A stretch of DNA of 64,000 nucleotides from a virus. The notes below the pieces were generated by a model. That model made no database searches and was not told the DNA's origin. It saw nothing but the letters and a program-made list of their open reading frames with translations. Positions 1 through 55,769 of the stretch are shown in pieces; position 1 is the first letter of the stretch; each line of letters begins with the position of its first letter. Position numbers and translations under genes: made by a program. The stretch is from positions 21,895-85,894 of the IMG/VR virus record IMGVR_UViG_3300045988_115355. One strand, written 5' to 3'.

Positions 1-590
1 AAAATAATCCTTATAGTAGAGTTATTACAGATAACATTAACTATTATATCACTACTAACTTTAGAGTTATAATAGAAAATGACATGCTACCTGTCTTAAG
101 ATACTTAGCTAAGCCTTCTATTCATGAAAGGAGATATACAGTAAGTGTAATTACTGATATTGGTGTTACAAGAGAGTTTAACAGGCATAGATGCCACTCT
201 ATAACAGAAGAGAGTACAAGATATTGTAACTATTCAAAAGATAAATTTGGCAATGGACTTACATTTGTTATCCCTGCATGGAGTAATATTCCTGAAGGAG
301 TTAACTATAGTGAATCTGATAATTTCTTTAATACTCCTAAAGCAGATTATACCTATATGATGTCTTGTTTAGTAGCAGAAAACAACTATACTCAACTTAT
401 AGCTTTAGGATGGAAGCCACAGCAAGCAAGAGAAGTGTTACCTTTAGGACTTAAAACACAAGTTATCCATACTGCTTTTAAGTCTGATTGGGTTGATTTC
501 ATCAATTTAAGAAGTAAGGAAATAAGTGGCAAGGCACATCCTAATATAAAAATTATCGCTGATAAGATTAAGGTTTTACTTAATCTTTAA
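1..590 (+). CDS. thyX: Flavin-dependent thymidylate synthase ThyX, 5'-truncated by window edge (frame open from nt 3)
   Basis: Contains ThyX signature RHR-x7-S (NRHRCHSITEES) and ES.RY; reading frame stays open upstream of the annotated ATG to nt 3, so the gene starts outside the window. Confidence 0.65.
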   Translation, partial: NNPYSRVITDNINYYITTNFRVIIENDMLPVLRYLAKPSIHERRYTVSVITDIGVTREFNRHRCHSITEESTRYCNYSKDKFGNGLTFVIPAWSNIPEGVNYSESDNFFNTPKADYTYMMSCLVAENNYTQLIALGWKPQQAREVLPLGLKTQVIHTAFKSDWVDFINLRSKEISGKAHPNIKIIADKIKVLLNL

Positions 591-617
591 ATTAGTTCTT
601 TTTTAAGAAAAAAGACT

Positions 618-656
618 AACCCTGTAAGTATGTATTGCTTACAGGGTTTTTATTTA
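618..656. terminator. Bidirectional rho-independent terminator between convergent thyX and 1354-aa gene
   Basis: 11-bp stem AACCCTGTAAG/CTTACAGGGTT with 9-nt loop, flanked by A-run upstream and T-run (TTTTTATTTAT) downstream. Confidence 0.7.
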
Positions 657-672
657 TGTCTTTGACTATTAA

Positions 673-3600
673 CTATTTATTAGTAGACTGTTTAAATACA
701 TTAAAGACATAGTCCTCTTCATCAATATTAAACTGCTTCACTATCTGACTATAGAAGGGTATAACCCTCTTGAACTTATGCCAATAGAGATTTTCTCCTT
801 TATCTTTACCATTCTCTACTACACTAAAGAGATTAGTAACATCTATTAAAGCTCCTATATCATTAATCATGTTAGTAGAAGCAATAGGAGAGTTTAAAGT
901 AGTCACTATGTTGTTAACAAAACCCATAGCACCTTGTCCACTAAAAGGCATAGGAATAGGTGTTGAAGCCTGTGTTTCCATCAGCATTCTCTTAATCTGA
1001 TAGACAAGGTTTCTATAAGCCCTGTTTCCTCTTTTATCTTTATAATCACCAAGAGAGAGATTACTTGCAGTAAGCATAGCAAAGATAGCTACTTCTGCAA
1101 TACATCTTTTCATATTATATTTATCCATTTCAGATAACTCTTCCCATCTTGTCTGTATCTGCGGTCTTGCTTTTACAAGTCCTTCAGCACATCCTTTAAG
1201 ATAGTTCCATAGAGAAACATAATACCCTCTTCTGAATTCTCCTAAGTCTTGGTCATAATGAAGCCCCATAAATCTTCTACCATAGTGTGTAGGCATCCAT
1301 TGTCTGAAATTCATAATCAATCTACCTACTACATATCTATGAGCCATACCTTTATCTATATCACTAAAAGCACCGTGCATGGTCTTATTAGCATAGGTAA
1401 TTATCTTCTCAACTCTTTCTTCATCTTTTTCTGTGATAGGTCTGTAAGATACATTACCATCTTTATCTTTCTCTATCCATTGGTATCTCTTATCCAATAT
1501 AAGTTTACCATTGTTATCTTTCTTCTCTACTTCATAAGCCTCTCTTAAGGAAACATCTGTATTAGTTTTACTGTCATGTACCTTAGTATGATTTAAAATA
1601 GCATACATAGTAACAGCATGCAACATGTGTTCCCCCATACCATATAGCATAAAGAGATTAGCATTGCTAAGCATTCTACCTAAAGCTGATTTATGAAACC
1701 CTTTAGACTTTAAAGAGCCGTAGAAATCCTCTAATATATCAAATTTCTCCATTAATAATCCCATCTTTGAAGACTTGTTATTACTATTAAGTTCTAATAA
1801 GAAAGGAGCTAACTCTTTAAAATATTCATATTCTCCTATTCCTAAATCCTTAAGATTGTAGAACTCTCCTGCACCACCATCAATAAGCATTTGCAGTTTA
1901 CCTACTAATACATTAGCTTGTGCACCTAACATATTAGTAACAAGGCCTGTAGTAGAGGTATAAGTAGTAGCCCAATCAGCTATCTTATTTTTATCAATCC
2001 TTACCCCAAATAGATAGAAGCTGCCATTATCTATCTTTGTTTTACCATATACACTTTTTTCATAGAAGTCTGTCAGTAATCCTTCTGTATAACCATTCTT
2101 TTTATACACAGATTTAATGACCATATCTCTACCCCATGTAAAGATATCATTGGCTACTCTATTACCTTCTGTTTGAGTATATTTTCTTTCTCCTAATATC
2201 CAATCTTTACTAAGCATTAAGGCATCAATGATTTTACTCATTTCCATATACTGAATACTTGTAGCCATCATAGCCATCATGCCTTTTGAGAAGTCAGTAG
2301 ATAATCTTGTTTTATCTTTAATCTCTCTTGTAAAGAATAATGGTATTCTCATTAACTCCTGACCATTTAAATCAGATACTACTCTCTTAATACCATTTAA
2401 CTCTAATACATCGTCAAAGTCTTGACCATAATCAGTGTCATCTTCTCTTCTTTGTATAGCATCAGTAAGTATGTTCTTTACAGCATGATATACTTGCATA
2501 GGATTACCACCTGAATCTTTAATCAGTTGTGTGTAATCAGCTGCTACCTGAATAGCTTGAAAGAAGTCTGTTTCCTTGGTAGGATTTCTACTACTCATAA
2601 TCATCTTTAAAGCCATCATCTTATAGTAGTAATCTCTTTGTGCAGGGCTTAAACTAAAGACATCCTTCACAGCATATCTACTTCTCTTTGGAACCCTGAT
2701 ACTATATATATATTCATCAGGGTTTACTTTCTCCCCAAAGATTTCATGTACCATTTCCCTAATGATATTTTGCGGAAAACCTTCTTTAAATAAATCTGTC
2801 TTTTCTGTATTAGCTTTTATCCATTTATCCACTTTATAGTCAATAGATGTTTTACTTAAACCTTGCTCTTTCAAGGACTTAATATAGGCTTCCTTATCTC
2901 TATTAAAGGCTTTAAAGTCGTAGGGAGAAATAAGATACCCTGTTGGAACACCTTTCTCATCCCTGATATACATAAAATCAGATTTATTTCCTGACTTATA
3001 GAGAGCATCTGTAGCCTGTCTTACAATATACAGTCCTCTGTTTAACTCTTTATTTCTTTCTCTATTTCTCTCTTTAACAGCACCATAGATAAGATTTAAG
3101 ACAACATCGTTACTCTCATTCATAGAATAGACAAACCTATCAAAGAAATTAATATCTTTCTGTGCTATTCTAAGCATACTCTCTAAGGAATAAATCTCAT
3201 GGTCAAACTCTTTAGTATCTTCATTTCCCCAATATAACTTTAGAAAAGAATAGATAACATCAAATTGTTTATCTCTTGCACCGCTCTCTACATTCTCTAA
3301 TAGTGTATTTAATGATACCGCCTTATCACTTATCTGCGGTAATATATCCTTTAAATCTTCTTTCTCTTCATCTGTAAGATAGTCAAAGTTTGTAAGAGCT
3401 TTCATCGCAGGTTTATAAGCATTAGCTATCATTAAACCATTTCTAATAGCTCCTGACAGCCGATTAATAATATCCAAGGAATCAGGATTCATCTTATAAG
3501 AATCCTCTATCATGTTATATTCATCATTGAGTGTCTGTAACTCTATCTGAAAGTTATCAAGCATAGCGATAATAGCTGAAGTATAATCTTTAGCTTGCAT

Positions 3601-4737
3601 GAGTTTAGTGACCTCTTTTAAAGCCTTATCATCACCTTCACTTTTACCTTTCTTTGTTCTGTTTATCTCTAACTGTTGCAATCTTAAATTCAACAGTCTT
3701 TCAGCTGCTTCTTGTAGAGATTCTATTTTATCCTTAATACCATCAATAATTTCTTTATCTATATGATAGGTTTTATATAATTCTCTTAAAGTCTTCTTTA
3801 CTTCTTTTACTTCTGTTCCTTCAGTAGTTGTTGTGTTTTTATTTAGAGAGTTTCTATTTGCTTCTACAAAGGCATTTAAATCTTTGAGGTTGATAGAGCC
3901 TAATTTCTCTTTAACAGATAGAAGCATGATATCTATTTTCTCTTTCCAATAGTCATTGAGATTATTCAATGCTTCAGGCTCTAAACCATAAGCCCTGTTT
4001 CCCGACATAAAGGCAAGAACATTGGGAGTAAAGTCACCAAATTTATCTACAATCCTTTGCATCAAAGGATTTTCTTTAAATAACTCTTGAATAAATTTAG
4101 CTGTTACCTCATTATATAAATAACCATCAGCTCCTGAACTAAAGATAATATCCTTTACAGTGCTATAGAAACTCTTAGCATTTATTACATTGACAAAGGT
4201 ACTAAGTAAAGACTTTGTAAATACAGTGTTAACTTTTAATTTATCATTAAGATATTGCAATACACTATCTTTGATAATTCTATTATCTTCTAAGGTGAAG
4301 TTAGTATCAAAGTTATCAGCATTTAAAGGCTCTACTTCTATATGGAACATACCTTTTGTATAGGCAATAGTAGCTCTAAGATTCTTTTCTCTATTATTAA
4401 AGTCAAGAACCTTAGTTAATATCTCTTCAGGGGTACTATATTCTATAATATGACCCCTATCATCTACAGCACCTATCTCTTCTTTTTTATCTTCTATTAG
4501 CTTTTTACTTCTTACAATATCCTCTATACCTATCTTCTCTAAGAACTTAGGACTTCTGATTTCATCTTGGCTATTAAAGTCTTTCTTATCAAACTTATCT
4601 TTAATCTCTTGTTGAAGAGATAGGCTATATAAATAGTTTGCTAACTTTCTGTCTTTTCCTGTAGCTTTAAAGATATCCTTATAAAGCTCACTTGGTTTAC
4701 CTTTTACAATAGGTACTAATACACATACTGCTCCCAT
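673..4737 (-). CDS. Giant virion (putative ejected/cargo) protein, 1354 aa, unknown function
   Basis: Long intact ORF with ATG start; last gene of the block of giant genes next to the RNAP-like gene; no recognisable catalytic motif. Confidence 0.6.
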   Translation of the reverse strand: MGAVCVLVPIVKGKPSELYKDIFKATGKDRKLANYLYSLSLQQEIKDKFDKKDFNSQDEIRSPKFLEKIGIEDIVRSKKLIEDKKEEIGAVDDRGHIIEYSTPEEILTKVLDFNNREKNLRATIAYTKGMFHIEVEPLNADNFDTNFTLEDNRIIKDSVLQYLNDKLKVNTVFTKSLLSTFVNVINAKSFYSTVKDIIFSSGADGYLYNEVTAKFIQELFKENPLMQRIVDKFGDFTPNVLAFMSGNRAYGLEPEALNNLNDYWKEKIDIMLLSVKEKLGSINLKDLNAFVEANRNSLNKNTTTTEGTEVKEVKKTLRELYKTYHIDKEIIDGIKDKIESLQEAAERLLNLRLQQLEINRTKKGKSEGDDKALKEVTKLMQAKDYTSAIIAMLDNFQIELQTLNDEYNMIEDSYKMNPDSLDIINRLSGAIRNGLMIANAYKPAMKALTNFDYLTDEEKEDLKDILPQISDKAVSLNTLLENVESGARDKQFDVIYSFLKLYWGNEDTKEFDHEIYSLESMLRIAQKDINFFDRFVYSMNESNDVVLNLIYGAVKERNRERNKELNRGLYIVRQATDALYKSGNKSDFMYIRDEKGVPTGYLISPYDFKAFNRDKEAYIKSLKEQGLSKTSIDYKVDKWIKANTEKTDLFKEGFPQNIIREMVHEIFGEKVNPDEYIYSIRVPKRSRYAVKDVFSLSPAQRDYYYKMMALKMIMSSRNPTKETDFFQAIQVAADYTQLIKDSGGNPMQVYHAVKNILTDAIQRREDDTDYGQDFDDVLELNGIKRVVSDLNGQELMRIPLFFTREIKDKTRLSTDFSKGMMAMMATSIQYMEMSKIIDALMLSKDWILGERKYTQTEGNRVANDIFTWGRDMVIKSVYKKNGYTEGLLTDFYEKSVYGKTKIDNGSFYLFGVRIDKNKIADWATTYTSTTGLVTNMLGAQANVLVGKLQMLIDGGAGEFYNLKDLGIGEYEYFKELAPFLLELNSNNKSSKMGLLMEKFDILEDFYGSLKSKGFHKSALGRMLSNANLFMLYGMGEHMLHAVTMYAILNHTKVHDSKTNTDVSLREAYEVEKKDNNGKLILDKRYQWIEKDKDGNVSYRPITEKDEERVEKIITYANKTMHGAFSDIDKGMAHRYVVGRLIMNFRQWMPTHYGRRFMGLHYDQDLGEFRRGYYVSLWNYLKGCAEGLVKARPQIQTRWEELSEMDKYNMKRCIAEVAIFAMLTASNLSLGDYKDKRGNRAYRNLVYQIKRMLMETQASTPIPMPFSGQGAMGFVNNIVTTLNSPIASTNMINDIGALIDVTNLFSVVENGKDKGENLYWHKFKRVIPFYSQIVKQFNIDEEDYVFNVFKQSTNK

Positions 4738-4758
4738 ATTATAATCTTTATTTCTTTA

Positions 4759-4766
4759 CAAAATTA
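4759..4766 (-). promoter_or_regulatory. Putative Bacteroides-type -7 box (TAATTTTG on minus strand) upstream of 1354-aa gene
   Basis: Plus-strand CAAAATTA = minus TAnnTTTG consensus, ~20 nt upstream of ATG at 4737 in a 29-nt intergenic gap. Confidence 0.4.
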
Positions 4767-7700
4767 CTAACATAATTTCAATTCCTCAATAGTCTTCTTA
4801 GCATTCTCCATAGTAAGTTCTGCTTTAGAAGCATCACCCACTATCTGTCTAATCTTATTAGCTACTTCATCTGTTATCATAGGGAAAGCCATAGAGTTAT
4901 ATTGGTAAGTTTCAAGGCTTTTTTCCAAGCCTTTAACCTTAGCTATCTCATCCATAGCTTCATAGTTCTCAAACTCTTTACCAAAGAATAACATGTGAGC
5001 AACATAATCATAAGCACTGCTATAAGTAGGAGTGTTCTTCTCCCCTTCCTTACCTGTAGAGGGTTGTGTATCTACATTTTCTACTTCTGTAGTTTCAGTA
5101 CTATTATTCTGTGCTTCCTTTTCAGCTTCTTCAGCTTCTTTCTTAGCAGCTATTCTCTCATTAATCTTAGTCCATATAGTATTAGGGAAATAAACATTAG
5201 GGTCTATCTCAAAACTATTTCCATTCCCACCTAAGCTATCTACTATTTGTACAATAGAAGTAGCTTTATCCCTATGCTTACTATAACCTCTGTATAGCTT
5301 ACCATCAGGAGCTTTAAACCTAATGATAGTAGGAGTAAAGGTAGTGATAGGAGCTAAGAAATAATGATTGCCAAACTTATCTTCTTGTAAGGTAATACCC
5401 TCTTTACTCAAATCATAGTACTTACCTAAGTTATTATTCAGCATAAACTGAACAACCATCTTAGTGATATGCTTTTCTATATCTATCTCATTATTACTTA
5501 GATTAGTGATATAATTAGGCAGCTTCGTCTTTAAAGTATTAGGCATAAGCTGTAAGAAAGTCTTAGGGCTAAAACCAAATGACCCTCTGAAATAGTTATA
5601 TTCCACTAACTGTAAAGCAAGTTTAGGGTCTTTCTCATATAAATCTTCCCATGCTCCTTTAAGTTCATCAATCTTATCTCTACTCATTCCCCTTACATCT
5701 AAGTTGAGTACAGTGATGCCATTCTTCTGTGTCTCTATAGTAATAGCTTTAATAAGAGGATTGTCAATATATTTAGTTTTAATCTCATTAAAGTCTACAG
5801 GGAACCTCTCTGCATAGTAAAGTCTATGCTTATAGTCATTATTAAATACAGGGTTCTCAATATTCACATAATAGGACATAAAGAAATTCATAAAATTAGT
5901 AGCTATAGATTCATTCATATAACCCGATGCTTTATAAAGATACATAAAACTATCTGTGAAAGATTCATTACCTTGTACAAGATTATTTCCTAATAAGATA
6001 TTATGTAATCCATAACTCTCTGTTTTAAAAGAACTTACAATAGGAAGACCTTTAAGGTAATTCTTTAATACAGTGTGTATATGTTCATCATCTTCAAACT
6101 TTGCATCCTTAATCATCATCATCAAAGTATTAGCCATTGTAGGACCAAGAGCATGTGAAATACTATTATAAGATGTCATGTGAGTTAAATTTCTAAAGGT
6201 ATCGGATATCTTGTTTACTTTTCCATACAACTCTAAGATAGTCATATTTCTAATATAACTATCAATACCTTCATCTTCCTCTTTAATAGCTTCTTTGAAA
6301 TCTTCATTCTTAAGAGATACATTTTGTACAACACCTGTGATAGAGGAATCTAATGCTTTAGCTTTTTCAAGCTCTTCAACAGTTAAATCAAGTATCATTT
6401 CATCAATGTTAACATAATCACCTGAAGAAGCTCTTACAGCATATTCATTAGCTAATTTTTGTATAATAGGAGTACTTAAGAACAGTCCTACTGTCTCTAA
6501 AGAGAAGCCTAATCTCACTAAGGTAGTTACAATATTCACAGTGTTCATATTGATACCCATAAGGTTTAATATAGGGTCTTTTACAGCATCTACAGAAGCT
6601 GCTAATAACTGCGCTAAGTTCTCACTTATTCTTGTAACACCATCAAAAGAATATTCCTCATCAATAGATACATCCCTTCTTATATCATGACCATTTAATG
6701 TAAATTCTTGCTCTGCTTCTATACCTATCTTATGTATAGGAGCATTCATGATAATAGAATGAGAGATATTAGATACTGCAAATACACCAATCAACTTAGC
6801 TGCTACCATATTTTGTTTATGGAATCTAAGTTGAGTATCTGCATACATCAAAGATTGTGAGCTATAGCTTATATCTTTAAGTTCTTTGATACTCATCTTA
6901 CCTAATTCATCGAAGTCTTCTTCTGATGTTCTTGCAGCTTCAATCATATAACCTACTCTCTTAAGCTCATCAAAGTTACCTGCCGATAACACTTGGCTCA
7001 TGGCTTGTGGAGAAGTAAGGATAGCCCATTGAGTAGCAACATTTAAATTATCATTAGCTTCCTTACCTACTTTAGGAGACCTATAGATAACTCTCTTTCC
7101 TTGATAGTTCTTCCAAGCATCCCTAATAAGTTCTGCTTGTGTGCTTAACTTTTCAGCTTCAGTGCTATCTTTACTAATAATATCTCTTACTAATTCTTTA
7201 GATAACCCTGTTTCCTTTGCAGCCCATTCTACAAATCCTTTCTTATCTTTTACTTTAAATCTATTTAAGGAGTATCTCATGATATAGAGTTTATCTATAT
7301 CAAAGTCAGAACCTGAAAGTAGTGTAATTTCTTTAGGCAACATAATAGCTTCTCCTGCTTCAGCAGGTAAGAAACCTTTAATTCTGATAGGTACCATAGA
7401 ATACTTTGCTTCTGTAGGAATTCTATAACCAACCATTTCTAATAATCTTGGGTTGGCTTGCGCCATAGCTTTAATATCTATAGTACCATCTTCCTTAGCA
7501 AAGTCTCTAATGATATTCTCATCATAAATAGGTAAGTAACATTCAAAGTAAGCTACACTATTCTGATGCTTGGCTTTATATTCATCATAAGTCTTCTCCT
7601 TATCAATCTTAATATATTTGTTATCTTGCTTACCTGTCTTAAGAGCTTCATTAAATTCCTTTTCTGTGAGTAAAATATTACCTTTTTTATCTTGGAATCT

Positions 7701-10700
7701 AATATTAAGATTATCAGATAAACCATAAGAAGAAGTCTGTACTACAGGACCACCTGCTATCTTCTGTTTATAAACAGTATTTTTAATAATACTGTTAAGA
7801 AGTTGCTGTATTCTGTAGGTTTGTACAGGGTCACTAAGAGGAATATTAAATTCACCATTCTCATCAGTAGAACAAGCCCATAGTAAATCTAAATCGCCTC
7901 TACCACTACTTAGAATCTCTTGTTGTAAGATTCTACTTAGTTGTACATTTCTTAGTTTTTGATTCTGAAAGTTAACACCTAATCTTTCAGATAACTCCTG
8001 CACACTCGTCTTTACATTCTCCTTGATAGCTTTATAGTAGTTTTGTTTAGCTTCAGCAACTGTTATTTCCTTAGCTACTCTTCTACCATATTCATCTTCC
8101 TCATAGATAACAACCTTATTATCATTACCTGCTTCATCTGTATCAGGCATATCAGCAACTATCAAAGCTCTATCTTGTGAACCTTGTTGCTGCTCTCCTT
8201 GGAAGTGTTTAGGTATCTCCTGCTGTAAGCTGTAATCTTCAAATGGTAATTCATGAACATTATCCATATTATAACTACCATCTGCATTATACATCTTCTT
8301 TTTAAAGAGTTCTTTAATCTCATCATAAGAGAGATTGTTAATATCTAAGGCTTCCATTAAACCTGTCTTAACAGTGGATTCAAACTGTATAGTATCAATA
8401 CCTTTAGTATTAGCTTCTCCTTTCAGAGTATTACCCTCAATCTTCATCCCTTGACTTTCTTCCATTACATCAAAGAGAGCTGTAAGTTTTGATTGTACAC
8501 CTTGCCCTCTCATTAGAGCATCAGCCATCACTAAGAGATATTCAGAATCTTTATTCTGTACACCTACTTTCAGTTTAGGTAAATAAGGATTATGTCCATC
8601 CTTTTCTATCTGTGAATAAAGGAAAGGTTTTAAAGGTTGCCATTTACCATTTAAATCTTTTAAAGTGAAATCACCTTTAAGAATTCTATGATAAGCAGCT
8701 TCATCTTCATTATCCCATTTCCCAAATATAATCATCTTCTTCCTATAAGGAGTAGGAGAAGTATAACCTTGTGCATCTGCCCAGTTGATAGACTTAAAAG
8801 CATCTATCAAAGCATCTACTTTTGATAAGGCTAAATCTCTTAATACCTGATTATCTTTATATTTAGGATTTTCAAGTATCTTCTTCTTTACTTCTTCAAG
8901 GTTTGATATTATATCTGAAACAGAAATACTGTCTTTTAAATACATGGTTCTAAACTTACCATCACTAACTCTCTTACCTTGATAAGTAGCATTAACATTA
9001 GGATTTAACCCCGGGGCATGATATTGTGCTAATCTCTTTTGTAAGTCTTCTGCATTCTTATAAAAGGCAGTATCAGTAACCAACAACTGTGTAAGCTGTG
9101 TAGTATAGAAATAATCTTCAAAAAAGAATTGCCTTGTATTTGTATTACTTGTAAGTGTTTCACTATACAGAGGGCTGTTAGTATCTGTAACAGCAGGTTC
9201 AAATTCATATAATTCTCTATAACCTACACTGTTATCCTCATTATCATAATTAGCAGTAATATCTTGTATAATATTCTCACTACTTAAATAATGTAAGAAG
9301 CCCGAATATCTTAACTCTATCGCATCCTCTATTACTTCAGGTAATACCCTTGCAATATAAGCAGCTTCTCCTTTGATAGTTTCTTCTACTATCTCATTTG
9401 TTTTATAATTCTTAGTATGTATAGTAAATTCAGTATCAGGGTCTAAAGCATCTTCATGAATCATCTTATAGATAATCTTACCTATATTATAAACTCTATT
9501 ATTTGAAGTACCTTCCTTTCTACTTTCTAATTCCTCATAAATATTCAGATAGTTATTTAAGAAATCAAGCCATTGAAACTTACTACCATTCTTATCAAAG
9601 TTTGTAATAGTAGGAGCACCATGAGCTTTTCTATAATTAACAGCTTTTATTCTGTTAATCTCCTGATAGAAAGTCTTTTCTGCTAAGAAGTTAACTATAT
9701 CACTAATAGGAAGATGTCTTAATTTAACATATTCCTCTGACGGCTTATTAGACATAATAGGTATTCTAAAGTAACCATAAAGATTCTGTCTATTACCATA
9801 TTCCCACATAGAGAGCATACTATTCAAATACTGATGAGTAGTCTTATCAGTATAACCTATCTTATCATCAGTGAGCAATACTACATGTTTAAGTAATTCC
9901 TTATCCATATCCTTTCTTTCGGCTAACTCTAAGATATAGTTTAGCCAACCTTTAGGACCTGCTTGCATTCTATTACTATCTTCTACTTCAGTACTGTTAT
10001 AGAAGATACCTTCATAAGGTTTAAATTCCTCATTTAATGTATCTTCTACATTCCCTGAAGTGCCATTCAGCTTTTCAAAGAGTTTACTCAAATAGTTTGG
10101 AAGTACATAGCTATAATATAACTTACCATTAGCATAGGTAACAGCTTCCATATCACTACCCATATAAGAAGCTATAGGTCTTAACAACTCATTGATATAG
10201 CTTTTTGTCTTATAAGAGACATATTTAAAGTTAGTCTTATTCTCTTCACTTGCTAATGTTCTACCTAAGTACATTACATACTTACAGAACATTTCAAGAT
10301 TATCCCTTCTTAAGCCTTTATTAATAGCACTTGAAGGATTAAAGATTTGATATAGCTCTTCTACTGTAGGGGTATCTATATTAAGTAGAGTATATATCAT
10401 TTGAATACTCTTAGCATCATCCATAGTGAAGACTCTTCTCTTCTCTTGTTTACCTGTCTTAGGATTTCTGACAAGTCCATATTGATTAGAGAACTGAACA
10501 TAATGAGAAATACCTGTAAGGAGATTATAAATCTCATCCATAATCTTTTCATTGATTTCTCCTTTTTCAGCATCCCATATAGTCAAAGCACCTTTATCTT
10601 TATTACGTTCTTTCTGCTGTAAGTTCTTAATAGCTTCATCAGCAAACTGCTTATCATTCATGATTTTCATAATACCTTTCCCTTGCTCATCTTTATAGAG

Positions 10701-13700
10701 AACAGCATATTTCTGAAAATACATTTTAAACTTACTATAGAACTGTGATTTAAACTGCTCATTACCATCACTTACTAAGATACCTGTCATTTGGTTTCCA
10801 CCAATAAGACCTCCATCCCAATAAGTTCCTACTAATTGGTTAAGCCAAGGTTCTGATTGTAAATGCTTTTGAAGCATACCTATCATAGAGTTATCTTTAT
10901 AACTACCATCAGCATTCTTCTCATCTAAGCTAAGAGCACCTTGTGTATAAAGAAGTATCTTGTTGACAGCTGTAGCACCATCTACTTTTCTTGCAATACC
11001 ATATTCATCTAAATTATAAGTACCGTCAGGATTGATAACATATAATTTATTAATAGCAATCTTTAGTATCTTACTTAAACTACTATGAGCAGATAACTGT
11101 CTAAAGCCTACTTGCCAATGCTCTAAAGAGTTACCAAATATCTCCTGTGTTTCTTGCTCTGTTTCTTCTGTGATAGCTTCTCCATCAGCATTCTCCTGCA
11201 TGTCTATAGGCTTTTCATTTAAAGCTACTTCCTCCATATCAGCTAATGTATCATAGCCTAACTTTACAAATGCTTCAAAGTTATCATAAATCATATTCAT
11301 CTTATCACAGATGTCATCATCATTATCAGCAGGCTCTGTATTTACATTCACATTGAAAACAGTCTCCTTGACAATATTAAGAAGTCTATCTAAACCAACA
11401 GTATTAAGTACTTCTATTCTTGTCATGTGAGTAAAGTCTACATCTTTAAACTCTTTATCAAGACCTAAAATAGCTTTACTTGCTTCATTACTCTGGAGCA
11501 TAGTGATATAATCACTGACCTTAAACATAGTAGTCTTTGCTAAGTGTTTAAGCTCTGAAGCAGTGAATATCTTTGAATCTAAGAAGTCTTTCTTAAACTT
11601 AATATCTCTTAGTTCTGTTTCTGTATAACCTACAGTGTAATTACCAAAGGCAGCTTTATATAAACCATATCTACTTAAGGTATTCAACTTAGCTCTTAAG
11701 CTCTTATTGATATTATTCGTGTAGAGAGTTTCTCCTAACTTTAAATCACCTTTATCAATAGCTTTAATAATCTTATCAGCTACCTCATCATCAGTACCTG
11801 TAAATAAGTCTTCTTCCTCTTTAGGCGTAGCATTTAAAGAGACTACTTCTGTAGTACTCTCAATAGCTTCTTTGACAAAATCATTAATACTGATTCCTAA
11901 CTTATTAGCAGCCTTTAAATCTTCAGCAGTAATAAACAATGCTTTGTGGTTAGCATCTGTATAAATGATTTTATCCTTAAGAGATTGTAAATTATCTTCT
12001 CTACTCTTATTTTCGTCTAAGTCTAATCCTATAAATTTAATACCATCCCTATCAAATACTAAGGCATGTTTATTATACTCGATATATCTATTATCAAAGT
12101 AATCTTCATTAAGTAAAGAATCAGCACCACTGTTATTAATTACCCTTTCAATTCTATATCTGTGAATCTCATTCTCATTATTTCTATGTAATATTCTACC
12201 TTTTAATCTGTCCTTTACTCTATTACTTAAGAAGTCTATAATACGAGTATCTAAGTTTAATCTTTCTTTCTCTGTCTCTACATTAGGTTGTACTACTAAA
12301 TCTGTAAGGACAGGCACTAATTGGTCATATAAAGTATTATTTGTTTTAGGTTTAATAAGTCCTAATATCCAATTAATAAGTTTCTCAAACCATGACATCT
12401 TACTTGTAGGTCTTGGTTTAAGCCTCATTAATAGAGTTTGGAATTCTCTATTAGAAAAGAACTCTGCTATAAACTCTTTAGGATTATACAGAGCATATAT
12501 ATCAAAAGGAACTATTCTACCTTTATATTCACCATCAGGAAATTTATCAGAATAGGATTTTATTTGCTGAATAATATCTACCATCATATTCTTCAACATC
12601 CTAAAGCTAGTAGCATCAGACAATGCTTTCTGTACAGTCAAAGTATGTACTAACTCATGCAATATAACTTTAGGTAAATTGAATTTTACATTACCTCTTG
12701 TATTTACATTAATATTAATTTGGTTTCCCTTGGCAAACCCAGCTCTTAATTTATTCTCATCATGATAGAAATTAATAGTAATTCCAGCATTTTGCACTAA
12801 AGGTAAAAATAATGTAGCTAAAGTAGCATAGTATTTTTGATTATAATCATCACCTGCATTATCTATTAAAGTAGCTAAAACATCTTCAGCTTTTAATTCT
12901 TTATTTACAGGAAATGTTTCTACCTTAACACCTTTTCTTTGGTCTTCTGTGAGACTTTTAAAGCTTAACATTTGTTTGCCTGCTGTAGCTTTATATATAG
13001 CATCTAAAACTTTATCTCCTGATGCTTTTACTTCTTCTTCTGTAATAGTAGGAGGTGTAGCTACCTGCATTAAATCATCAGAATGTAACTTAATTACATC
13101 AGATTCTTTAGTAGTAGCAAAAGGAAAGAACTCACTCTTATTTGCTTCATAGTCTAATATTTTACTTCCTACATTGTCTCTGTGGAATTTATAATAGATG
13201 CCTGTACTATCAAAGTAAGCTAATAAATCTTTCTTAATAGCAGCATCCTGCATTCTTCTTTGTACAGCATTCCTTGGTGATTGCTTATAAGCATTATTAA
13301 TGCTTTTCTGATAATCTATTTTACCTGCTTCAGCAGTCTTTAAAGATAATACAGGAGCTTTAATAACTACTTTCCAAGTTCCTTTATCAGGTTCTGTGTA
13401 TTCACTACTATGTTTCAAAGGAGCTATTTCCTCCTTTGAAGGTTGTCTATATATAAAGACATTCCCCTTACCAAACTTAGGTGATAACTCTTTATCTCTA
13501 AACTTTTCAGCATCACCCTTAGAATTGAAAGTAAAGGTGTTCCCTATTTTTCTATAGTATCTTACTTGTGCTACAGTACCTTCAAAAGATAAATGTTCTA
13601 CATAAGCCTTTATCTGATTAGCAGTAGGCATAAAATCATCTTGATGTAATACCTCTCTAAAGTATTTTATTAGATAGTTTACTATATCAAGTGAATACCC

Positions 13701-21079: not shown

Positions 21080-24000
21080 TTAAAATCTTCTTTTCTTCTT
21101 AAGACTACCACCTAAACTCTTCTTAGTACTATTCAAAGGTGTTGAAGCAGTACTTGGGATATTAAGTGGATTTGTAATCCCAGCACCATCTTTCCACATA
21201 TTATGCTCCATGTCTCCTGCAAAAACACCTCTTTCAGCTAATGAGGTAAGCCAATTCCTTTGCATATTCTCCCATCCCATATCTCCTAATCCTTGTAAAG
21301 CATTAGTGATATTAGCACTGATAGCAGCTTTTCTTTGATCATCTAATGCTTGCCTCATAGCATAACCTCTTGCTAAACCATTCATCATAAAGGATTTCTG
21401 ATTAGCATTAAGCTGTGCTTCTGTCAGATTTCTTTGGTTATCAGATTGAGCATTAAACATATTAGTACCTCTATTAAATTCTGATACCTGTGCATCATCT
21501 GCTCTATTAGATAAATAAGATTGTCTTGCAGCTTCTGCTAAACTTCTCTCATTGTTGTAATTATTAGCCATGATAGCTGCTAATCCCATAGCCCTGTTAC
21601 CATTAGTAATGTCTTGTGCTATCCTATTAGCAGCAGCATTATTCTGCATTATCTGATTGGCGAGATACCTTTCATCAAAAGGCTTCTTTTGCCTGTAATC
21701 TCCTATTACACTAACAGGAATGCTAACAGGTCTTCCTGCATTATAAGCAGCATCTATGATAGCATTCGCATTCCTATAATCAGGTTTACTTAATATATTA
21801 TCCAAAGCCATAGCAAAGCTGCCCATCATAGGAGCATATCTCATCCATGTAGATAGATATTTAGCTTTGGGATTTCCCTTTGTGGGTATATTATTCCCAA
21901 CATTATTAGGTAATTTATTCACTAAAGGATTTAAATAACCTTTATCCTCTTTAGGTTTACTGCCTGACAGAATATCTAAATTCTTATTAAAGTTCTTTTC
22001 CTTTAATATCTCATTAGCTACATGGTGCATAAAACCATACTTCCCATCTAAAGCTCCTTGCCTCCACTGTTCATCTGTAAGAGTATCTAAGGTGTTTCCT
22101 CTCTTCAGATAACTAAGAAAAGAAGGGTCATTAGGATGCTGTTTAGTCCACTTTCTAATATAATCAGCTGTTAAAGAGTTAACTAAATTTCTGTAGTCAT
22201 CTGTATAATCATAAGCATGACCTGCCTTATCATATTTAAAACCCCAACCTATAGGAGAGGAATCTTTCATGATATCATTGTAATACTTATAAAGTTCAAT
22301 TCTCTTTCCCATTTCTATGGGAGATATATTACCTATACTACCATCAGTAATATCTCCACCATCAGGATAGAGATTACCTCCAAAAGCATAAGTGTTATCT
22401 TCGTCTATCTCACTATTATAAGCATTATAAAGCTGCTGTAATTTCTCATTCTCCTTAGCAACTTTATCCTGCTGTTTCTCATATTCTTTTTGCTCCATAG
22501 CAGCTTTCTGTGCTTCCTGTGTATCTTCAAACTCTGCTAAGTTACCCTGCATAGTCTTTTGAGAGATACTGTCATTAGGTCTTTCTTTAGCTTCTCTTGA
22601 TAATTTCTTTGAGGCTTCAGCATAGGTGATACCTTTAGGCAACCTATATTTCTCCGCCAACTCATCAGGAATAGTTAATCTATCAGAGAAGACATAATCT
22701 CCTTTCCATATAGTCTCTCCTTGTTCCACTAAGTTAGGAACACCTTCATTGTCTGTACCTATAGGTACACCACCATGGGGATTAGTCTCATGTCTACCAC
22801 CTTCATTAATAGCTGTCAAGCTCCCATTCTCACTTAACTTTCCACCTTTTGCATATACACTTGCTAATGAAGGGTTATATGTATCAAATTTTAATTTACC
22901 ACCCATTGCATTATAATTTTGTAAAGCTCTATAATCATTTAAATCATCAACCTTTTCAGCAGCATACATCAAGTTATGATTAACTCTCTCATTAGCTGCG
23001 TTTATCTTATCATTTAACTCTCTTGCTTTTCTCTTAGCTTTCCCTATACCTATGATAGAACCAACAACTGAAGAGACACCTCCTACTATACCTCCTATAG
23101 CAGCACCCCAAGGACCAAAAGAAGAGCCAGCATTAAACCCTTCAAAAGAAGCAGGTACTGAAGAGAGGAAATCATCAAAGTAAGATTTATCTCTTATATC
23201 TCTATAATTAAGATTACCATTGATGTTGGTCTTATTATTAAAGAGATTAAGAACATCAGAAGTAGTGTTCACATTTCCTACAGCATCATCAATAGAATGA
23301 GAGAAGTTATCTATCTTATTCTCAATAGCTGTAGTACTCTGAAGAGTTGATTGGTTTTTAAAGTTACTTGCTAACTTTAGAACTGAATTAGCTATATTAG
23401 CATAATTCATCATATTCCCACCACCTGCAAAGAGATTGCCACCATTATTATATAAACCTATCTTCTCTTCCAAGGAAGGTCTATTGTGTTTTGTGAATCC
23501 TCTGATAGCATTTAGAATATCATAGGTACCCATTCCTAATTGTCCTGCCATACCATAAGAACCACTACCACTGTTTCTACCTAACATAGGATTTTCCTTA
23601 CCCCATGTTCCTATAGTGGTAGCTAATGTCCCTGCTTGACCTAACCAACCATTGATATTACCCATCATATTACCCATCTGTCCTATTCCTGCGGTGGTAA
23701 GACTACCCCCATCAGCATAAGTATTTAGGTCTCCCATATTGTAACTCTCTAAAATAGATTCTACTGAAGGAATAGTAGAGATAATAGGAGATTGTGGTCT
23801 TTGAATATAGTTACTAAGAGTATTTAAATCTACATTACTTTTATTGAATGTAGGTATAGTAGGTATAATAGACTTCTGTGAAGGAGAGATATTAAAATCT
23901 ATATTACCTCTCTTAACATTGAAGTCAGGGACAGGTAATGATTTAAATTCCTCATTCTCTATAGGCATATTCATAGGTGGCTTAGCCACCCTTAAAGCAT

Positions 24001-25267
24001 CAGGAACAGCTACTTGCTGTGTATTTACTTTAGGTAGATTGTAGTTACCACCTGCATATACACTTTTCCTAATGTTATTTCTTTTATCATATCCTTTTAC
24101 CCCTAAGTAGTTAACAGCATTCTTATCTCCTGCCATTACAGCCTTATGAAATCTTGACCCCCTACTTACAGCTATAGGACTTTGATAATAGGTATCTAAA
24201 ATAGCAGCTACCTGATTAGCATTTAAAGGAGTATCACCATAAGTATTTCTTAGCGTAGAAGCTGCCCTATTTAAATACCAATCTAACTCTTGTTCTGCTT
24301 GCTGTTTAGACATTCCATGAGGATAACTATTTGTGATACCATCCTTATATCTTTCTCTAAACCCTGCATTTGTAAATCCATAACCAATAGTGGCATTCCC
24401 TAAATGGTCTTTATAAGTAGCACTTCTCCACCCTTCATTCCTTCTGATAATATCTTTAGCTTTAGTTACTCCTGCTTTCCATACATCACCTCCTGAAGCT
24501 AACACATGGTTTAAACTACCACCATTAGCCATATAGTTTGTCATAACCCTTACATCATTTAAACTATCTACATTATCTGCTGTATGGAGGATAGAGTTGA
24601 AATAATCACTGTTAGCACCATCAATCATTGTATTTAAAGCATTGGTCTTTCTTCTTGCTTTATGAGAGAACCAACCATCTTTACCTACTTCAGATTTAAT
24701 AACATTAGTCATAATAGCATTATTAGCAAAGTCTGCCAATAGGCTATCGTTGGTAGTGGCTTCTGAAGTGAAGTTTCTTAAAGCCTTTGCTTTAGCTTCT
24801 GTTGCATGGATAAAATCTGTATTTAACTTACTGCCAAACATGGTGTTAATAACACCACCTAATGTTGAAAGCCCTGGTATAGCACTAATAATATTTCCTA
24901 CTTTTGATTCTCTTCCATTAGCTACCATCTTAGCTATGTTTCCCCCCATAGTATCAGCAGCTAAAGCTATCCCCATGATATCTCCACCACCATTAGAATT
25001 AGAGAACATGGAACCTAAAGAACCTAAAGGGTTATTATTGCTATTAGTAGTAGCACTGTTTAGTCCTGCATTTCTAAACATATTACCAAAGTTAAAGGTA
25101 CTGTCATAATTGGTATTGGCAGTACCATTAAACATCTGTAATCCTGAATTACCTACAAAGCTGTTAGTACCTCCTGACAGGCTACCACTACCCATGTTCC
25201 CTATAAGGCTATTAGAGTAATTCTGAAATTGCTGTAAAGAGTTATTATTAATATTATTAGTGTTCAT
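21080..25267 (-). CDS. Large tail/internal virion protein (1395 aa) with GH24 (T4-lysozyme-like) muralytic domain and Gly/Asn/Ser-rich N-terminus
   Basis: Residues ~272-298 NEGWRSATYKDHLGNATIGYGF match E-G-x-R-x3-Y-K-D-x2-G-x2-T-I-G-x-G catalytic pattern of T4 lysozyme (nt 24373-24456); G/N/S/M-rich repeats like tape-measure/ejection proteins. Confidence 0.65.
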   Translation of the reverse strand: MNTNNINNNSLQQFQNYSNSLIGNMGSGSLSGGTNSFVGNSGLQMFNGTANTNYDSTFNFGNMFRNAGLNSATTNSNNNPLGSLGSMFSNSNGGGDIMGIALAADTMGGNIAKMVANGRESKVGNIISAIPGLSTLGGVINTMFGSKLNTDFIHATEAKAKALRNFTSEATTNDSLLADFANNAIMTNVIKSEVGKDGWFSHKARRKTNALNTMIDGANSDYFNSILHTADNVDSLNDVRVMTNYMANGGSLNHVLASGGDVWKAGVTKAKDIIRRNEGWRSATYKDHLGNATIGYGFTNAGFRERYKDGITNSYPHGMSKQQAEQELDWYLNRAASTLRNTYGDTPLNANQVAAILDTYYQSPIAVSRGSRFHKAVMAGDKNAVNYLGVKGYDKRNNIRKSVYAGGNYNLPKVNTQQVAVPDALRVAKPPMNMPIENEEFKSLPVPDFNVKRGNIDFNISPSQKSIIPTIPTFNKSNVDLNTLSNYIQRPQSPIISTIPSVESILESYNMGDLNTYADGGSLTTAGIGQMGNMMGNINGWLGQAGTLATTIGTWGKENPMLGRNSGSGSYGMAGQLGMGTYDILNAIRGFTKHNRPSLEEKIGLYNNGGNLFAGGGNMMNYANIANSVLKLASNFKNQSTLQSTTAIENKIDNFSHSIDDAVGNVNTTSDVLNLFNNKTNINGNLNYRDIRDKSYFDDFLSSVPASFEGFNAGSSFGPWGAAIGGIVGGVSSVVGSIIGIGKAKRKARELNDKINAANERVNHNLMYAAEKVDDLNDYRALQNYNAMGGKLKFDTYNPSLASVYAKGGKLSENGSLTAINEGGRHETNPHGGVPIGTDNEGVPNLVEQGETIWKGDYVFSDRLTIPDELAEKYRLPKGITYAEASKKLSREAKERPNDSISQKTMQGNLAEFEDTQEAQKAAMEQKEYEKQQDKVAKENEKLQQLYNAYNSEIDEDNTYAFGGNLYPDGGDITDGSIGNISPIEMGKRIELYKYYNDIMKDSSPIGWGFKYDKAGHAYDYTDDYRNLVNSLTADYIRKWTKQHPNDPSFLSYLKRGNTLDTLTDEQWRQGALDGKYGFMHHVANEILKEKNFNKNLDILSGSKPKEDKGYLNPLVNKLPNNVGNNIPTKGNPKAKYLSTWMRYAPMMGSFAMALDNILSKPDYRNANAIIDAAYNAGRPVSIPVSVIGDYRQKKPFDERYLANQIMQNNAAANRIAQDITNGNRAMGLAAIMANNYNNERSLAEAARQSYLSNRADDAQVSEFNRGTNMFNAQSDNQRNLTEAQLNANQKSFMMNGLARGYAMRQALDDQRKAAISANITNALQGLGDMGWENMQRNWLTSLAERGVFAGDMEHNMWKDGAGITNPLNIPSTASTPLNSTKKSLGGSLKKKRRF

Positions 25268-25291: not shown

Positions 25292-25299
25292 CAAAAATA
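25292..25299 (-). promoter_or_regulatory. Putative -7 box (TATTTTTG on minus strand) upstream of 1395-aa gene
   Basis: Plus CAAAAATA 25 nt upstream of ATG at 25267, directly downstream of terminator hairpin. Confidence 0.4.
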
Positions 25300-25343
25300 G
25301 CTATAATAAACATTTATACCAATCTTTTACAAGAAAAAGAAAT

Positions 25344-25372
25344 ATCCCAATAAGTAAAATTCTTATTGGGAT
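25344..25372 (-). terminator. Intrinsic terminator/attenuator between 1674-aa and 1395-aa genes
   Basis: Perfect 11-bp stem ATCCCAATAAG/CTTATTGGGAT, 7-nt loop; on minus-strand RNA followed by UUCUUUUUCUUG. Confidence 0.6.
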
Positions 25373-25389
25373 AGTCTTTTATATTCATT

Positions 25390-30414: not shown

Positions 30415-31106
30415 CCTTGATGTTGTTTAATATATTCAGTATCTCCTAATGTCTTAAACCCTCTACTAAACTCTGTGTTATTAGGTAATAACCTATGTAA
30501 CATACTTGTGATACTTTGCATTTCGCTTAAAGAAAGCATCTTATACCTGTTACTTACTTGACCAGCAGCAAAATAATATTGCTGTTGTATGTTCTGTAAG
30601 ATAGCCATAGATGCTAACTTACCACATTCAAAGAGTGTAGTAAAGCATTGTAATCTAATATACAACTCTAAAGCTCTCATAAAGACAGTATCATCAGGAA
30701 TTAAAGGTAGTCCTTCTTCATCTGTCTTCATAGTTTTATAAGCTATCTCAATCTTACCTTCCTTAAAGGAAGTATAGATGATATCCCCTTGTATCTTAAA
30801 AGATAACTCACTTTCTATATGATTCTGTTTTTCATTGAAAGTATCTGTCATTGCTCTTAGGAACCTCTTACTGCAATACTCTCTTACCTGAATAACCTGT
30901 ATAACCTTACAAGGTAGTTTGCCTCTATAATCTTTAATATCGATAGTATCATTTCTATCTTCATAGATAACAGGTAAACCCATAATTCTAATAAAGTCTA
31001 CAGCATATTGTATAGCTGCTTCTAAATTAAAATCCTGAAGCATAGGATGCCTTAGCACCCTACTTATCACCTCTCTTATATTAGTATATTCGAGCTTGTC
31101 TATCAT
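30411..31106 (-). CDS. Structural-module protein, 231 aa
   Basis: ORF with 4-nt overlap to downstream gene; compact operon context. Confidence 0.5.
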   Translation of the reverse strand: MIDKLEYTNIREVISRVLRHPMLQDFNLEAAIQYAVDFIRIMGLPVIYEDRNDTIDIKDYRGKLPCKVIQVIQVREYCSKRFLRAMTDTFNEKQNHIESELSFKIQGDIIYTSFKEGKIEIAYKTMKTDEEGLPLIPDDTVFMRALELYIRLQCFTTLFECGKLASMAILQNIQQQYYFAAGQVSNRYKMLSLSEMQSITSMLHRLLPNNTEFSRGFKTLGDTEYIKQHQG

Positions 31107-31659
31107 AACTATGTTTATTTAAAGGATATTCCATTCCATTCTTAATAGCCGCACTTAAAGCATATTTAAAAGAAGTAGCAGCATGAAACATTGCAAAGAG
31201 TTTAAACTTTAGATTAGCACGATGAGCTTTACATAAATAAATAGTATGTGTACAGTTGGTATCAAAATACACAAATACTCTATTCTTTCTTGCTTCCTCA
31301 TCTTTAAACCAAAGTTCAGTAGTTGCTCCCCAATTAATTATCTTTCTATTAATCAGTCTACCATTCTTTATTTCAGGAGTAAGGTCTACTTTGATAATTC
31401 TTACATTACCCATTCCATAAGGTAATTTAAGAACACCACCTTGAATGATATACTCTCTTTGCAACATTAACATCCTATTCATGATAACCCTGAATTTCTC
31501 TCTATTCATATTATATTCAGGCTTATTATCAGGAATCAGCGTCTTATAATGTCTGTGATAATCTTTATACCTATAACAGTTATGGGCTTTATTTTTAGGC
31601 CTACACCCTTTTCTTGTAGACCTAAACTGACGTAAAGCCTCTTTATCTATCTCTTCCAT
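31081..31659 (-). CDS. Structural-module protein, 192 aa
   Basis: ORF overlapping neighbours (26 nt), consistent with translational coupling. Confidence 0.5.
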   Translation of the reverse strand: MEEIDKEALRQFRSTRKGCRPKNKAHNCYRYKDYHRHYKTLIPDNKPEYNMNREKFRVIMNRMLMLQREYIIQGGVLKLPYGMGNVRIIKVDLTPEIKNGRLINRKIINWGATTELWFKDEEARKNRVFVYFDTNCTHTIYLCKAHRANLKFKLFAMFHAATSFKYALSAAIKNGMEYPLNKHSYDRQARIY

Positions 31660-53352: not shown

Positions 53353-53383
53353 ATCCTTTATCTTAAAAAATAAAAGACCTAAA

Positions 53384-53404
53384 CTCTTATTTAGGAGATA
53401 AGAG
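53384..53404 (-). terminator. Intrinsic terminator downstream of GroES-like gene
   Basis: Stem CTCTTAT/ATAAGAG with 7-nt loop; minus-strand RNA continues UUUAGGUCUUUUAUUUUUUAAG. Confidence 0.6.
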
Positions 53405-53432
53405 AATAGGCCCTATGCAAACAAGAACTTCT

Positions 53433-54524: not shown

Positions 54525-54525
54525 A

Positions 54526-54774: not shown

Positions 54775-54786
54775 AACTATAACTAT

Positions 54787-55135: not shown

Positions 55136-55160
55136 ATCTCAAGTTACTTAAAAACAGGTA

Positions 55161-55621: not shown

Positions 55622-55769
55622 AAAAGCTACTCTATAACCCAAGTAGCAAGGCCTACCTTACGATGTAGTTAATTGTAATCTCTACAACTAAATTTACGGT
55701 TGTATAACCAACTAATATCTATTGAAGACAAGATAATAAACAAATCCTATTGCAAAGATATGAATTAAT

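Follow-up and report, generated by a model that had tools for sequence, protein, structure and literature searches.

Two crAss-like phages, phi14:2 and crAss001, provide the described systems with which the gene block analysed here can be compared. In phi14:2, genes g070–g065 encode, all in one direction, a tail protein, gp69, gp68, gp67, the RNA polymerase (RNAP) gp66 and gp65 (labelled 'RNAP associated protein'), and all six products were annotated from tandem mass spectrometry of virions; virion packaging and rifampicin-resistant early transcription are known for this phage. In crAss001, the gp44–gp50 region encodes the muzzle, cargo proteins 1 and 2, gp47, gp50 and gp49, packaging is likewise known, and virion mass spectrometry found gp45, gp46, gp47, gp49 and gp50. 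The 'RNAP subunit' labels that crAss001 gp47 and gp49 bear are GenBank annotations, not demonstrated subunits. Coliphage N4 (Schitoviridae) works alike, in that its giant capsid-stored polymerase gp50 is ejected with gp51/gp52 and starts early transcription. Here we describe a 64,000-nucleotide stretch of the IMG/VR virus record IMGVR_UViG_3300045988_115355 (positions 21,895 to 85,894; hereafter the window), in which six adjacent genes for proteins of 1674, 1395, 601, 1823, 2996 and 1354 aa in all likelihood serve a divergent crAss-like phage as its module for virion delivery and early transcription, comprising a muzzle, two small and three giant ejected proteins. The block is a divergent example of the crassvirus arrangement already described and not a new type of system.

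The six open reading frames (ORFs) lie back to back on the minus strand, as a preliminary description of this sequence had noted, with gaps of 122, 25, 7, 12 and 29 nt in gene order (Table 1), and they form the downstream end of a co-directional gene run of ~52 kb that also holds the auxiliary capsid protein, ring proteins 1 and 2 and a crassvirus major capsid protein (PF23898, 1.2e-184). On L005, an independent IMG/VR contig, the same genes were found intact, except that cargo protein 1 is cut there by the end of the locus. In the four genes compared, amino-acid identity between the window and L005 was 93–99%, and the ratio of non-synonymous to synonymous substitution rates (dN/dS), taken over the whole lengths compared with the lineage-specific parts included, was 0.04–0.13. 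These ratios and the intact copies in L005 indicate real coding genes under purifying selection rather than chance ORFs. Major capsid protein identities of 68% to Kolpuevirus and 63% to crAss001-like phages mark the phage as a divergent member of the Steigviridae. As no near-identical DNA for the block turned up among 50,697 phage genomes, its identification rests on protein-level searches, in which the giant proteins reached 22–47% identity to anything annotated, the nearest annotated genome for them being cr116_1 (Pamirivirus, Steigviridae; gp51/gp50/gp49/gp48) at 27–47%.

The gene order and common orientation are those of phi14:2, where a gap of similar size (~115 nt, against 122 nt in the window) also separates the tail/muzzle gene from the first cargo gene. 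The two phages differ in that their proteins are only 22–24% identical and in that the polymerase chain of the window is ~800 aa longer, at its N-terminus. crAss001 has orthologues of all six window proteins, but its gp50–gp49 pair is inverted relative to gp44–gp47, and the RNAP/gp48 block of cr116_1 is inverted in the same way, whereas the window genes are all collinear. The crAss-like layout of ejected cargo and polymerase that the preliminary description had recognized was thus borne out: Pfam identified the muzzle and both cargo proteins, and the three giants matched crAss001 gp47 (1e-66), gp50 (7e-145) and gp49 (1e-85). Its assignment of all six genes to cargo or polymerase held for five of them and failed for the 1674-aa gene, which encodes the structural muzzle of the tail.

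Table 1. Positions of the genes, protein modules and candidate regulatory signals of the block (nucleotides of the window; aa, residues of the protein named).
Feature	Position	Strand	Basis or remark
Muzzle, 1674 aa	25390-30414	-	Pfam PF25731, PF25729
Cargo protein 1 (C1), 1395 aa	21080-25267	-	Pfam PF25725
Cargo protein 2, 601 aa	19249-21054	-	Pfam PF25712
gp47/gp67-like giant, 1823 aa	13770-19241	-	BLASTP, crAss001 gp47
Virion RNA polymerase chain, 2996 aa	4767-13757	-	PDB 6vr4, crAss001 gp50
gp49/gp65-like giant, 1354 aa	673-4737	-	BLASTP, crAss001 gp49 and phi14:2 gp65
Predicted T4/P22-type lysozyme domain of cargo protein 1, aa 277-385	24113-24439	-	PF00959
Glycine-zipper hydrophobic helix of cargo protein 1, aa 721-742, GAAIGGIVGGVSSVVGSIIGIG	23042-23107	-	Kyte-Doolittle 1.91
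HExxH metallopeptidase-like module (zincin-type motif) at the polymerase N-terminus, aa ~300-500	12258-12860	-	motif-based
HELVH, aa 367-371 of the 2996-aa protein	12645-12659	-	HExxH motif
Glu helix NPKEFIAEFF, aa 425-434 of the 2996-aa protein	12456-12485	-	motif
RNAP catalytic motif DFDID, aa 2151-2155 of the 2996-aa protein	7293-7307	-	aligned to gp66 1361-DFDID-1365
Degenerate peptidase site NEVTA, aa 209-213 of the 1354-aa protein	within 4051-4116	-	alignment to relatives
Hydrophobic helix of the 1354-aa protein, aa 1212-1230	1048-1104	-	family-conserved
Intrinsic-terminator-like hairpin, 12-bp stem, then TTTCTTTTTC	25343-25373	-	directly 3' of the muzzle stop codon
Bacteroidetes-type -7 box TAttTTTG	25292-25299	-	24 nt before the C1 ATG; promoter function inferred
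TAatTTTG box	4759-4766	-	inside the 29-nt gap, 21 nt before the ATG of the 1354-aa gene
Bidirectional terminator: hairpin flanked by T-runs on either side, with a 13-bp stem on the + strand scanned	618-648	.	closes the block

The homology searches against crAss001 and phi14:2 gp66 that the preliminary description had proposed identified the 2996-aa protein as the virion polymerase chain. Besides the BLASTP match to crAss001 gp50, phmmer aligned it to phi14:2 gp66 (PDB 6vr4; 3.2e-16), with the sequence SGSDFDIDK (aa 2145–2156; SGSDFDVDK in crAss001 gp50) placed on the catalytic DFDID, and BLASTP gave a contiguous alignment of aa 1544–2437 to gp66 863–1659 (7e-29). According to the crystal-structure paper on gp66, both double-psi beta-barrel domains of this enzyme reside in one chain and are joined by a Connector (1095–1238), the motif DFDID (1361–1365) provides the aspartates essential for activity, and a bridge helix (1529–1559) and a trigger loop (1598–1636) follow. 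Since the aligned segment spans the Connector, DFDID, the bridge helix and the trigger loop, all these elements fall within a single chain, and the 2996-aa protein is predicted to be a complete single-chain two-barrel RNA polymerase. The preliminary description had considered that the polymerase might be spread over several adjacent giants, a division that the uninterrupted alignment across gp66 863–1659 contradicts; a split enzyme was also rejected on the ground that searches with the 1823-aa and the 1354-aa protein revealed no likeness to gp66 or to other RNAP families. The likeness to N4 is an analogy rather than family membership, judging from the folds concerned, the N4 polymerase being a T7-like single-subunit enzyme without sequence homology to the QDE-1-like two-barrel type expected in the window.

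Alignments to two further relatives, L006 and L008, place the boundary between a variable N-terminal region (aa 1–705) and a conserved core holding the two-barrel polymerase (aa ~706–2866) near residue 706–730. Over this core the identity to cr116_1 rises to 47%. The polymerase gene of cr116_1 (locus L003, 14998–25863) is split into gp51 and gp49 by a 215-aa ORF, gp50, which is annotated only as 'hypothetical protein' with the note '17 gene product'. It is precisely the catalytic motif that is divided, gp51 aligning with the window protein as far as residue 2153 and gp49 from residue 2154 onwards. The small ORF has the appearance of an element inserted where the gene is most conserved, perhaps an intron or homing element; the window gene, unlike that of cr116_1, is uninterrupted.

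The 1674-aa protein is the orthologue of crAss001 gp44, that is, the structural and gating muzzle of the tail and not cargo. It matched the Pfam family crAss_MUZ (PF25731) at 2.9e-241 (804.6 bits, cut-off 27), crAss_MUZ_C (PF25729) at 5e-10 and gp44 by BLASTP at up to 1e-112, and its gene directly follows those of ring proteins 1 and 2 (PF24228, PF25702). Between these two ring-protein genes a 192-aa ORF (31081–31659, minus strand) overlaps ring protein 1 by 26 nt and has no match in Pfam; in crAss001, the sequence just before the muzzle gene encodes an HU/IHF-like protein, gp42, beside the tail tubular protein gp43.

The 601-aa protein, encoded between cargo protein 1 and the gp47-like gene, is the orthologue of crAss001 gp46, matching PF25712 over aa 7–505 (7.4e-37, 127.9 bits, cut-off 27) and gp46 itself by BLASTP (6e-26). 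The 1395-aa protein is the orthologue of gp45, with matches to PF25725 (6.7e-39, 133.5 bits, cut-off 27) and, in three segments, to PDB 7qog chain M ('Cargo protein 1 gp45'; 1.6e-76). Because its residue 666 aligns with gp45 residue 85, cargo protein 1 of the window has an extra N-terminal portion of ~665 aa without counterpart in gp45, and within this portion we predict a T4-type phage lysozyme domain (GH24, muramidase): PF00959 was matched at 8.7e-10 (39.4 bits, cut-off 22.3) and PHROG 7, an endolysin family, at 3.7e-10. In an alignment to P22 lysozyme (2anv), NEGWRSATYKDHLGNATIGYG retains E, D and T, the endolysin 8app being aligned as well. These positions correspond to the catalytic Glu/Asp/Thr of T4 lysozyme. 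The lysozyme segment had no detectable crass-phage homologue among 50,697 phage records. The crAss001 orthologue has 842 aa and no lysozyme, and gp69 of phi14:2 (420 aa; first cargo position, orthology being assumed from position only) gave zero Pfam matches. Outside the lysozyme, query residues 666–795 align to gp45 85–215 and include the glycine-zipper hydrophobic helix, which by this alignment would correspond to the transmembrane helix predicted at gp45 residues 136–158 (Bayfield 2023). T7 gp16 has a transglycosylase domain. By analogy, the lysozyme would functionally resemble that domain and would arm the first-ejected protein for cutting the cell wall.

The two remaining giants flank the polymerase. 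The 1354-aa protein, encoded directly downstream of the polymerase gene, matched crAss001 gp49 over residues 388–1302, the C-terminal part of phi14:2 gp65 (2e-23) and, over its full length, its cr116_1 counterpart (27% identity). Its conserved C-terminal part (aa 388–1354) represents a family module of ~940 aa, and a profile built from it found 5478 clusters at 50% identity, 2386 of them at 1e-30; nearly all members have 1300–1400 aa with the module at the C-terminus. In four of the 150 best representatives the module is fused to a polymerase (3393–4674 aa), with a DFDxD/DYDYD-type motif upstream of the module in each. The family also conserves a hydrophobic helix with charged flanks (aa 1212–1230 in the window protein), with a mean Kyte–Doolittle value of 1.48 and 83% of members above 1.2. 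The 1823-aa protein is conserved with crAss001 gp47 over its N-terminal ~760–810 aa (residues 1–761 in the BLASTP match; the conserved 810 aa correspond to nt 16812–19241) and aligned pairwise with phi14:2 gp67 over aa 68–439. Two glycine-rich hydrophobic stretches of this protein (aa 103–133 and 199–253) resemble the helix of cargo protein 1. Beyond near-identical contigs, the C-terminal ~1000 aa of the protein have no detectable relative, and the gene as a whole shows a dN/dS of 0.12 against L005. No match to the 1823-aa protein was obtained in Pfam, PHROG, NCBIfam or the PDB, the other two distal giants likewise had none in PHROGs or NCBIfam, and profiles of the gp49-like and gp47-like families returned only coiled-coil or AAA noise, above 0.02, when run against PDB sequences. 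An AlphaFold2 model of the conserved module of the 1354-aa protein was too poor to interpret (pLDDT 52, pTM 0.36, five input sequences), and Foldseek found no match for this poor model in the PDB below E = 0.1.

A metallopeptidase-like module links the three giants to each other. Drobysheva et al. assigned a Zincin-like metallopeptidase domain with an HExxH motif to the gp65 orthologues. In the window this motif is absent from the gp65-like 1354-aa protein and stands intact at residue 367 of the polymerase, in a pattern of an HExxH helix, a Glu-bearing helix (NxxEFIaE) ~55 residues further on and another conserved helix. The same motif is found at residue 245 of phi14:2 gp65, at residue 2157 of crAss001 gp47 (C-terminus) and at residue 635 of cr116_1 gp51, the latter again being the N-terminus of a polymerase, as in the window, L006 and L008. 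In a four-way alignment the HExxH motifs of the window, cr116_1 gp51 and phi14:2 gp65 fell into the same columns; crAss001 gp47 was offset at this motif, but shared the downstream Glu helix and the helix following it. Each phage thus has one intact HExxH module among the giants read, carried in the window by the polymerase N-terminus, in crAss001 by the C-terminus of gp47 and in phi14:2 by gp65. The length of crAss001 gp47 plus gp50 (4753 aa) is similar to that of the 1823- plus 2996-aa proteins (4819 aa), which fits a shifted gene boundary between crAss001 and the window phage. In the 1354-aa protein the sequence NEVTA occupies the place at which relatives read HEAGH or HEFSH and crAss001 gp49 reads EEFAH, and its position suggests a decayed copy of the peptidase. 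When the polymerase-type module was compared with the gp49-like N-terminal domain by hhalign, the motifs fell in register at P = 0.009 and a probability of 4.5%, so that paralogy between the two domains can be proposed only tentatively. Judged from sequence, then, the local variations of the window are the lysozyme that cargo protein 1 appears to carry, the intact HExxH peptidase-like module on the polymerase chain and the apparently degenerate site in the gp49-like protein.

Two kinds of regulatory signal were found at the sites where the preliminary description had reported them, namely a terminator/promoter pair within the block and a box before its last gene. The hairpin behind the muzzle gene and the TAttTTTG box preceding cargo protein 1 have a parallel in crAss001, where a strong hairpin and a T-run in the gp44–gp45 gap are joined by TAcaTTTG, 19 nt ahead of the ATG of gp45. 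Taken by itself, TAnnTTTG is poor evidence of a promoter, with 119 copies in the window against 79 expected, many of them inside genes; the recurrence of the same pair in crAss001 makes the muzzle–C1 combination more than chance, and its retention between phages whose capsid proteins are only 63% identical means that the genes downstream very probably form a separately promoted unit. TAttTTTG is accordingly the likely, if putative, promoter of a five-gene cargo/RNAP transcription unit. The TAatTTTG box before the 1354-aa gene can be regarded as no more than a possible internal promoter. The chance of such a box within 29 nt is ~0.03, estimated from the strand-specific motif density, but the motif is too frequent in this AT-rich genome to carry that reading, and at the matching position the gaps of crAss001 and phi14:2 measure only 2 nt. 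At the other end, the block is closed by the bidirectional terminator (fold energy −20.5 kcal/mol over an 82-nt region), which is convergent with a plus-strand ThyX-like gene. The term 'late operon' used in the preliminary description is only approximate: the terminator/promoter pair sets the unit apart from the structural genes upstream, and the corresponding genes of phi14:2 belong to the middle class, being transcribed by the host RNAP and still active late.

What, then, do the giants on either side of the polymerase contribute? The 1823- and 1354-aa proteins are evolutionarily tied to the polymerase, to judge from their constant adjacency, the fusions and the wandering HExxH module. With high probability they supply no missing catalytic parts and are obligatory co-ejected partners of the polymerase. 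Our preferred reading, drawn from the N- and C-terminal domains of the N4 polymerase, is that they would serve its delivery, membrane anchoring or activation. The order 1823-aa protein, polymerase, 1354-aa protein mirrors the order N-terminal domain, core, C-terminal domain of the N4 enzyme, and the N4 authors, who draw a parallel in ejection strategy between schitoviruses and crassviruses, suggest that this domain parallel with the crassvirus genes is worth testing. Modest hydrophobic signals, namely the conserved helix of the gp49-like family and the glycine-rich stretches of the 1823-aa protein, also hint at contact with a membrane.

The 1823- and 1354-aa proteins might instead be accessory RNAP subunits acting in promoter recognition, DNA melting or processivity and forming a holoenzyme with the 2996-aa chain after ejection, as the preliminary description had proposed. 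Early transcription is rifampicin-resistant, so any phage factors that it needs must arrive with the virion, and extra virion-delivered factors are plausible; the universal adjacency of the two genes to the polymerase gene, the repeated fusions of polymerase and gp49-like module and the GenBank labels 'RNA polymerase associated protein' and 'putative RNAP subunit' point the same way. Neither protein, however, contains a detectable nucleic-acid-binding, sigma-like or RNAP-subunit domain in searches of Pfam, PHROGs, NCBIfam and the PDB, the catalytic core is by all appearances complete in their absence, and fusion is equally explained by co-packaging and ordered ejection. The N4 virion polymerase, moreover, handles the same template problem with host single-stranded DNA-binding protein and gyrase, not with virion factors. 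Taken as a full account of the two flanking giants, a holoenzyme of this kind is a tentative proposal; between a delivery, anchoring or activation role and an accessory-factor role as such, we divide the weight roughly equally.

Similarly doubtful is the proposal that the two proteins are mainly parts of an ejectosome that build or anchor the trans-envelope channel, comparable to T7 gp15/gp16 and N4 gp51/gp52, and have no role in transcription. The conserved charged-flanked hydrophobic helix of the gp49-like family, the glycine-rich stretches that the gp47-like protein has in its conserved N-terminal part, the largely alpha-helical structure predicted for both proteins and the schitovirus–crassvirus parallel of the N4 paper would all suit such a role. 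Against this, the hydrophobicity is borderline, the channel has been given to cargo proteins 1 and 2 by Bayfield et al. and by the N4 authors, and neither sequence nor fold similarity to the ejection proteins of T7, N4 or P22 was found, the fold comparison being uninformative owing to the poor model.

The variable regions of the giants raise a different possibility, in which these proteins are 'polyvalent' carriers of effectors, delivering anti-defence or host-takeover enzymes that the HExxH module sets free, with the polymerase as one payload among others. Iyer et al. (2017) described 'polyvalent proteins' in which the HExxH (zincin-type) peptidase is a hub domain and to which N4-type virion polymerases, always fused to such a peptidase and sometimes accompanied by a lysozyme, belong. 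The relatives fit this pattern, and the variable N-terminal domains on their polymerase chains are an instance of it: upstream of the core, the chain of L008 (3033 aa; 897–9998) carries an ART-PolyVal ADP-ribosyltransferase (1.2e-14), then the HExxH and then a PD-(D/E)XK domain, and that of L006 (4287 aa; 1–9999) carries an SF1 helicase C-terminal domain (UvrD_C_2, 2.1e-07) and a PD-(D/E)XK match below the Pfam cut-off (9.7e-04). In the window, by contrast, Pfam detected no effector domain beyond the peptidase module in the variable regions (aa 1–705 of the 2996-aa, 811–1823 of the 1823-aa and 1–387 of the 1354-aa protein), and 10 sub-segments of the lineage-specific regions searched against Pfam at E up to 1 yielded only noise. 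Since the peptidase module was the only such domain detected, effector delivery adds little for the window genome beyond the peptidase itself, and we consider it improbable here. Tail fibres, adhesins or other external virion proteins, for which only size and position after the tail genes would speak, can practically be set aside: Pfam, PHROGs, NCBIfam and PDB searches of the three distal giants gave none of the fibre or adhesin matches that the preliminary description had named as evidence against internal cargo, nor any Ig-like or beta-helix match, their homologues are internal cargo in crAss001, and one of the giants is demonstrably an RNAP homologue.

Returning to the reading in which the flanking giants deliver, anchor or activate the polymerase, the following sequence of events can be envisaged from crAss001, phi14:2, T7 and N4. 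The terminator and the host-type promoter after the muzzle gene would start a five-gene unit whose products would be packed in the capsid and ejected ahead of the DNA. On infection (i) the muzzle would open; (ii) cargo protein 1 would leave first, its glycine-zipper helix entering the membrane and its lysozyme domain cutting peptidoglycan; (iii) cargo proteins 1 and 2 would form a conduit; (iv) the three giants would be threaded through it partly unfolded and would refold in the cell; and (v) the 2996-aa polymerase would transcribe the early genes, while the HExxH module, if an active peptidase, would process or activate cargo. A more speculative extension, in which we place little confidence, is that the three giants evolved and function as a single unit requiring exactly one active HExxH peptidase, whose position is free, that this protease acts in trans to mature or switch on an auto-inhibited polymerase after ejection, and that the lysozyme fusion has moved wall cutting to cargo protein 1.

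Several observations weigh against this scheme. The peptidase assignment draws on motifs and sub-threshold Pfam scores, which are weak hints (Peptidase_M90 at 0.062 for the window module, SprT-like for the copies of cr116_1 and phi14:2), and the AlphaFold model of the module was unusable (pLDDT 44.5); the low confidence of both models arises because only five sequences were supplied. A profile search with the alignment of the module returned nothing, which reflects a limit of the method rather than evidence of absence, and word-indexed homologue searches were thin, with one match for the polymerase N-terminus and six for the 1354-aa protein. Only the N-terminal 760–810 aa of the 1823-aa protein are common to gp47, and its match to gp67 is weak (2e-07). 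A mean hydrophobicity of 1.48 is borderline for a transmembrane segment, so that anchoring by the helix of the gp49-like protein is weakly based. Packaging in the window phage is presumed by analogy with homologues only 22–30% identical, and the evidence leaves room for the partners as true transcription factors.

Further observations concern the surroundings of the block and its relatives. In L008 (Logan SRR23924966_444), translation with table 11 places dozens of in-frame stops between 14045 and 23972 in the genes downstream of the gp49-like gene, namely the 2027-aa gp47-like, cargo 2 and cargo 1 genes; the table 11 translation of the gp49-like gene differs from the recorded product, and the polymerase gene reads through. 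Such a pattern points to a reassigned stop codon in part of the L008 genome, a phenomenon already reported for some crAss-like phages; the window genes need no stop-codon recoding. The ThyX-like ORF converging on the end of the block (84–590, plus strand, 168 aa) matched PF02511 at 4.3e-20, over profile positions 59–182 only, and a Thy1-family gene also lies beyond the gp49-like gene on the opposite strand in L006 and upstream of the polymerase gene in L008. A region of ~5.8 kb in the window (53353–59167) has no ORF of at least 150 aa; it contains a tRNA-Arg(TCT) gene (55547–55621, minus strand), and at ~56–58 kb the sign of the GC skew changes along with the gene orientation, which turns from minus to plus. 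The structural and replication modules may meet in this region, or it may contain an origin.

Taken together, our results leave the current picture of crassvirus biology unchanged and add to it a divergent, uninterrupted and collinear version of the crassvirus module that can serve as a point of comparison. The window presents a polymerase chain that appears self-contained, an HExxH module that moves among three proteins and a lysozyme that can be grafted onto cargo protein 1, and it thereby gives concrete constructs for studying the activation of an auto-inhibited polymerase.

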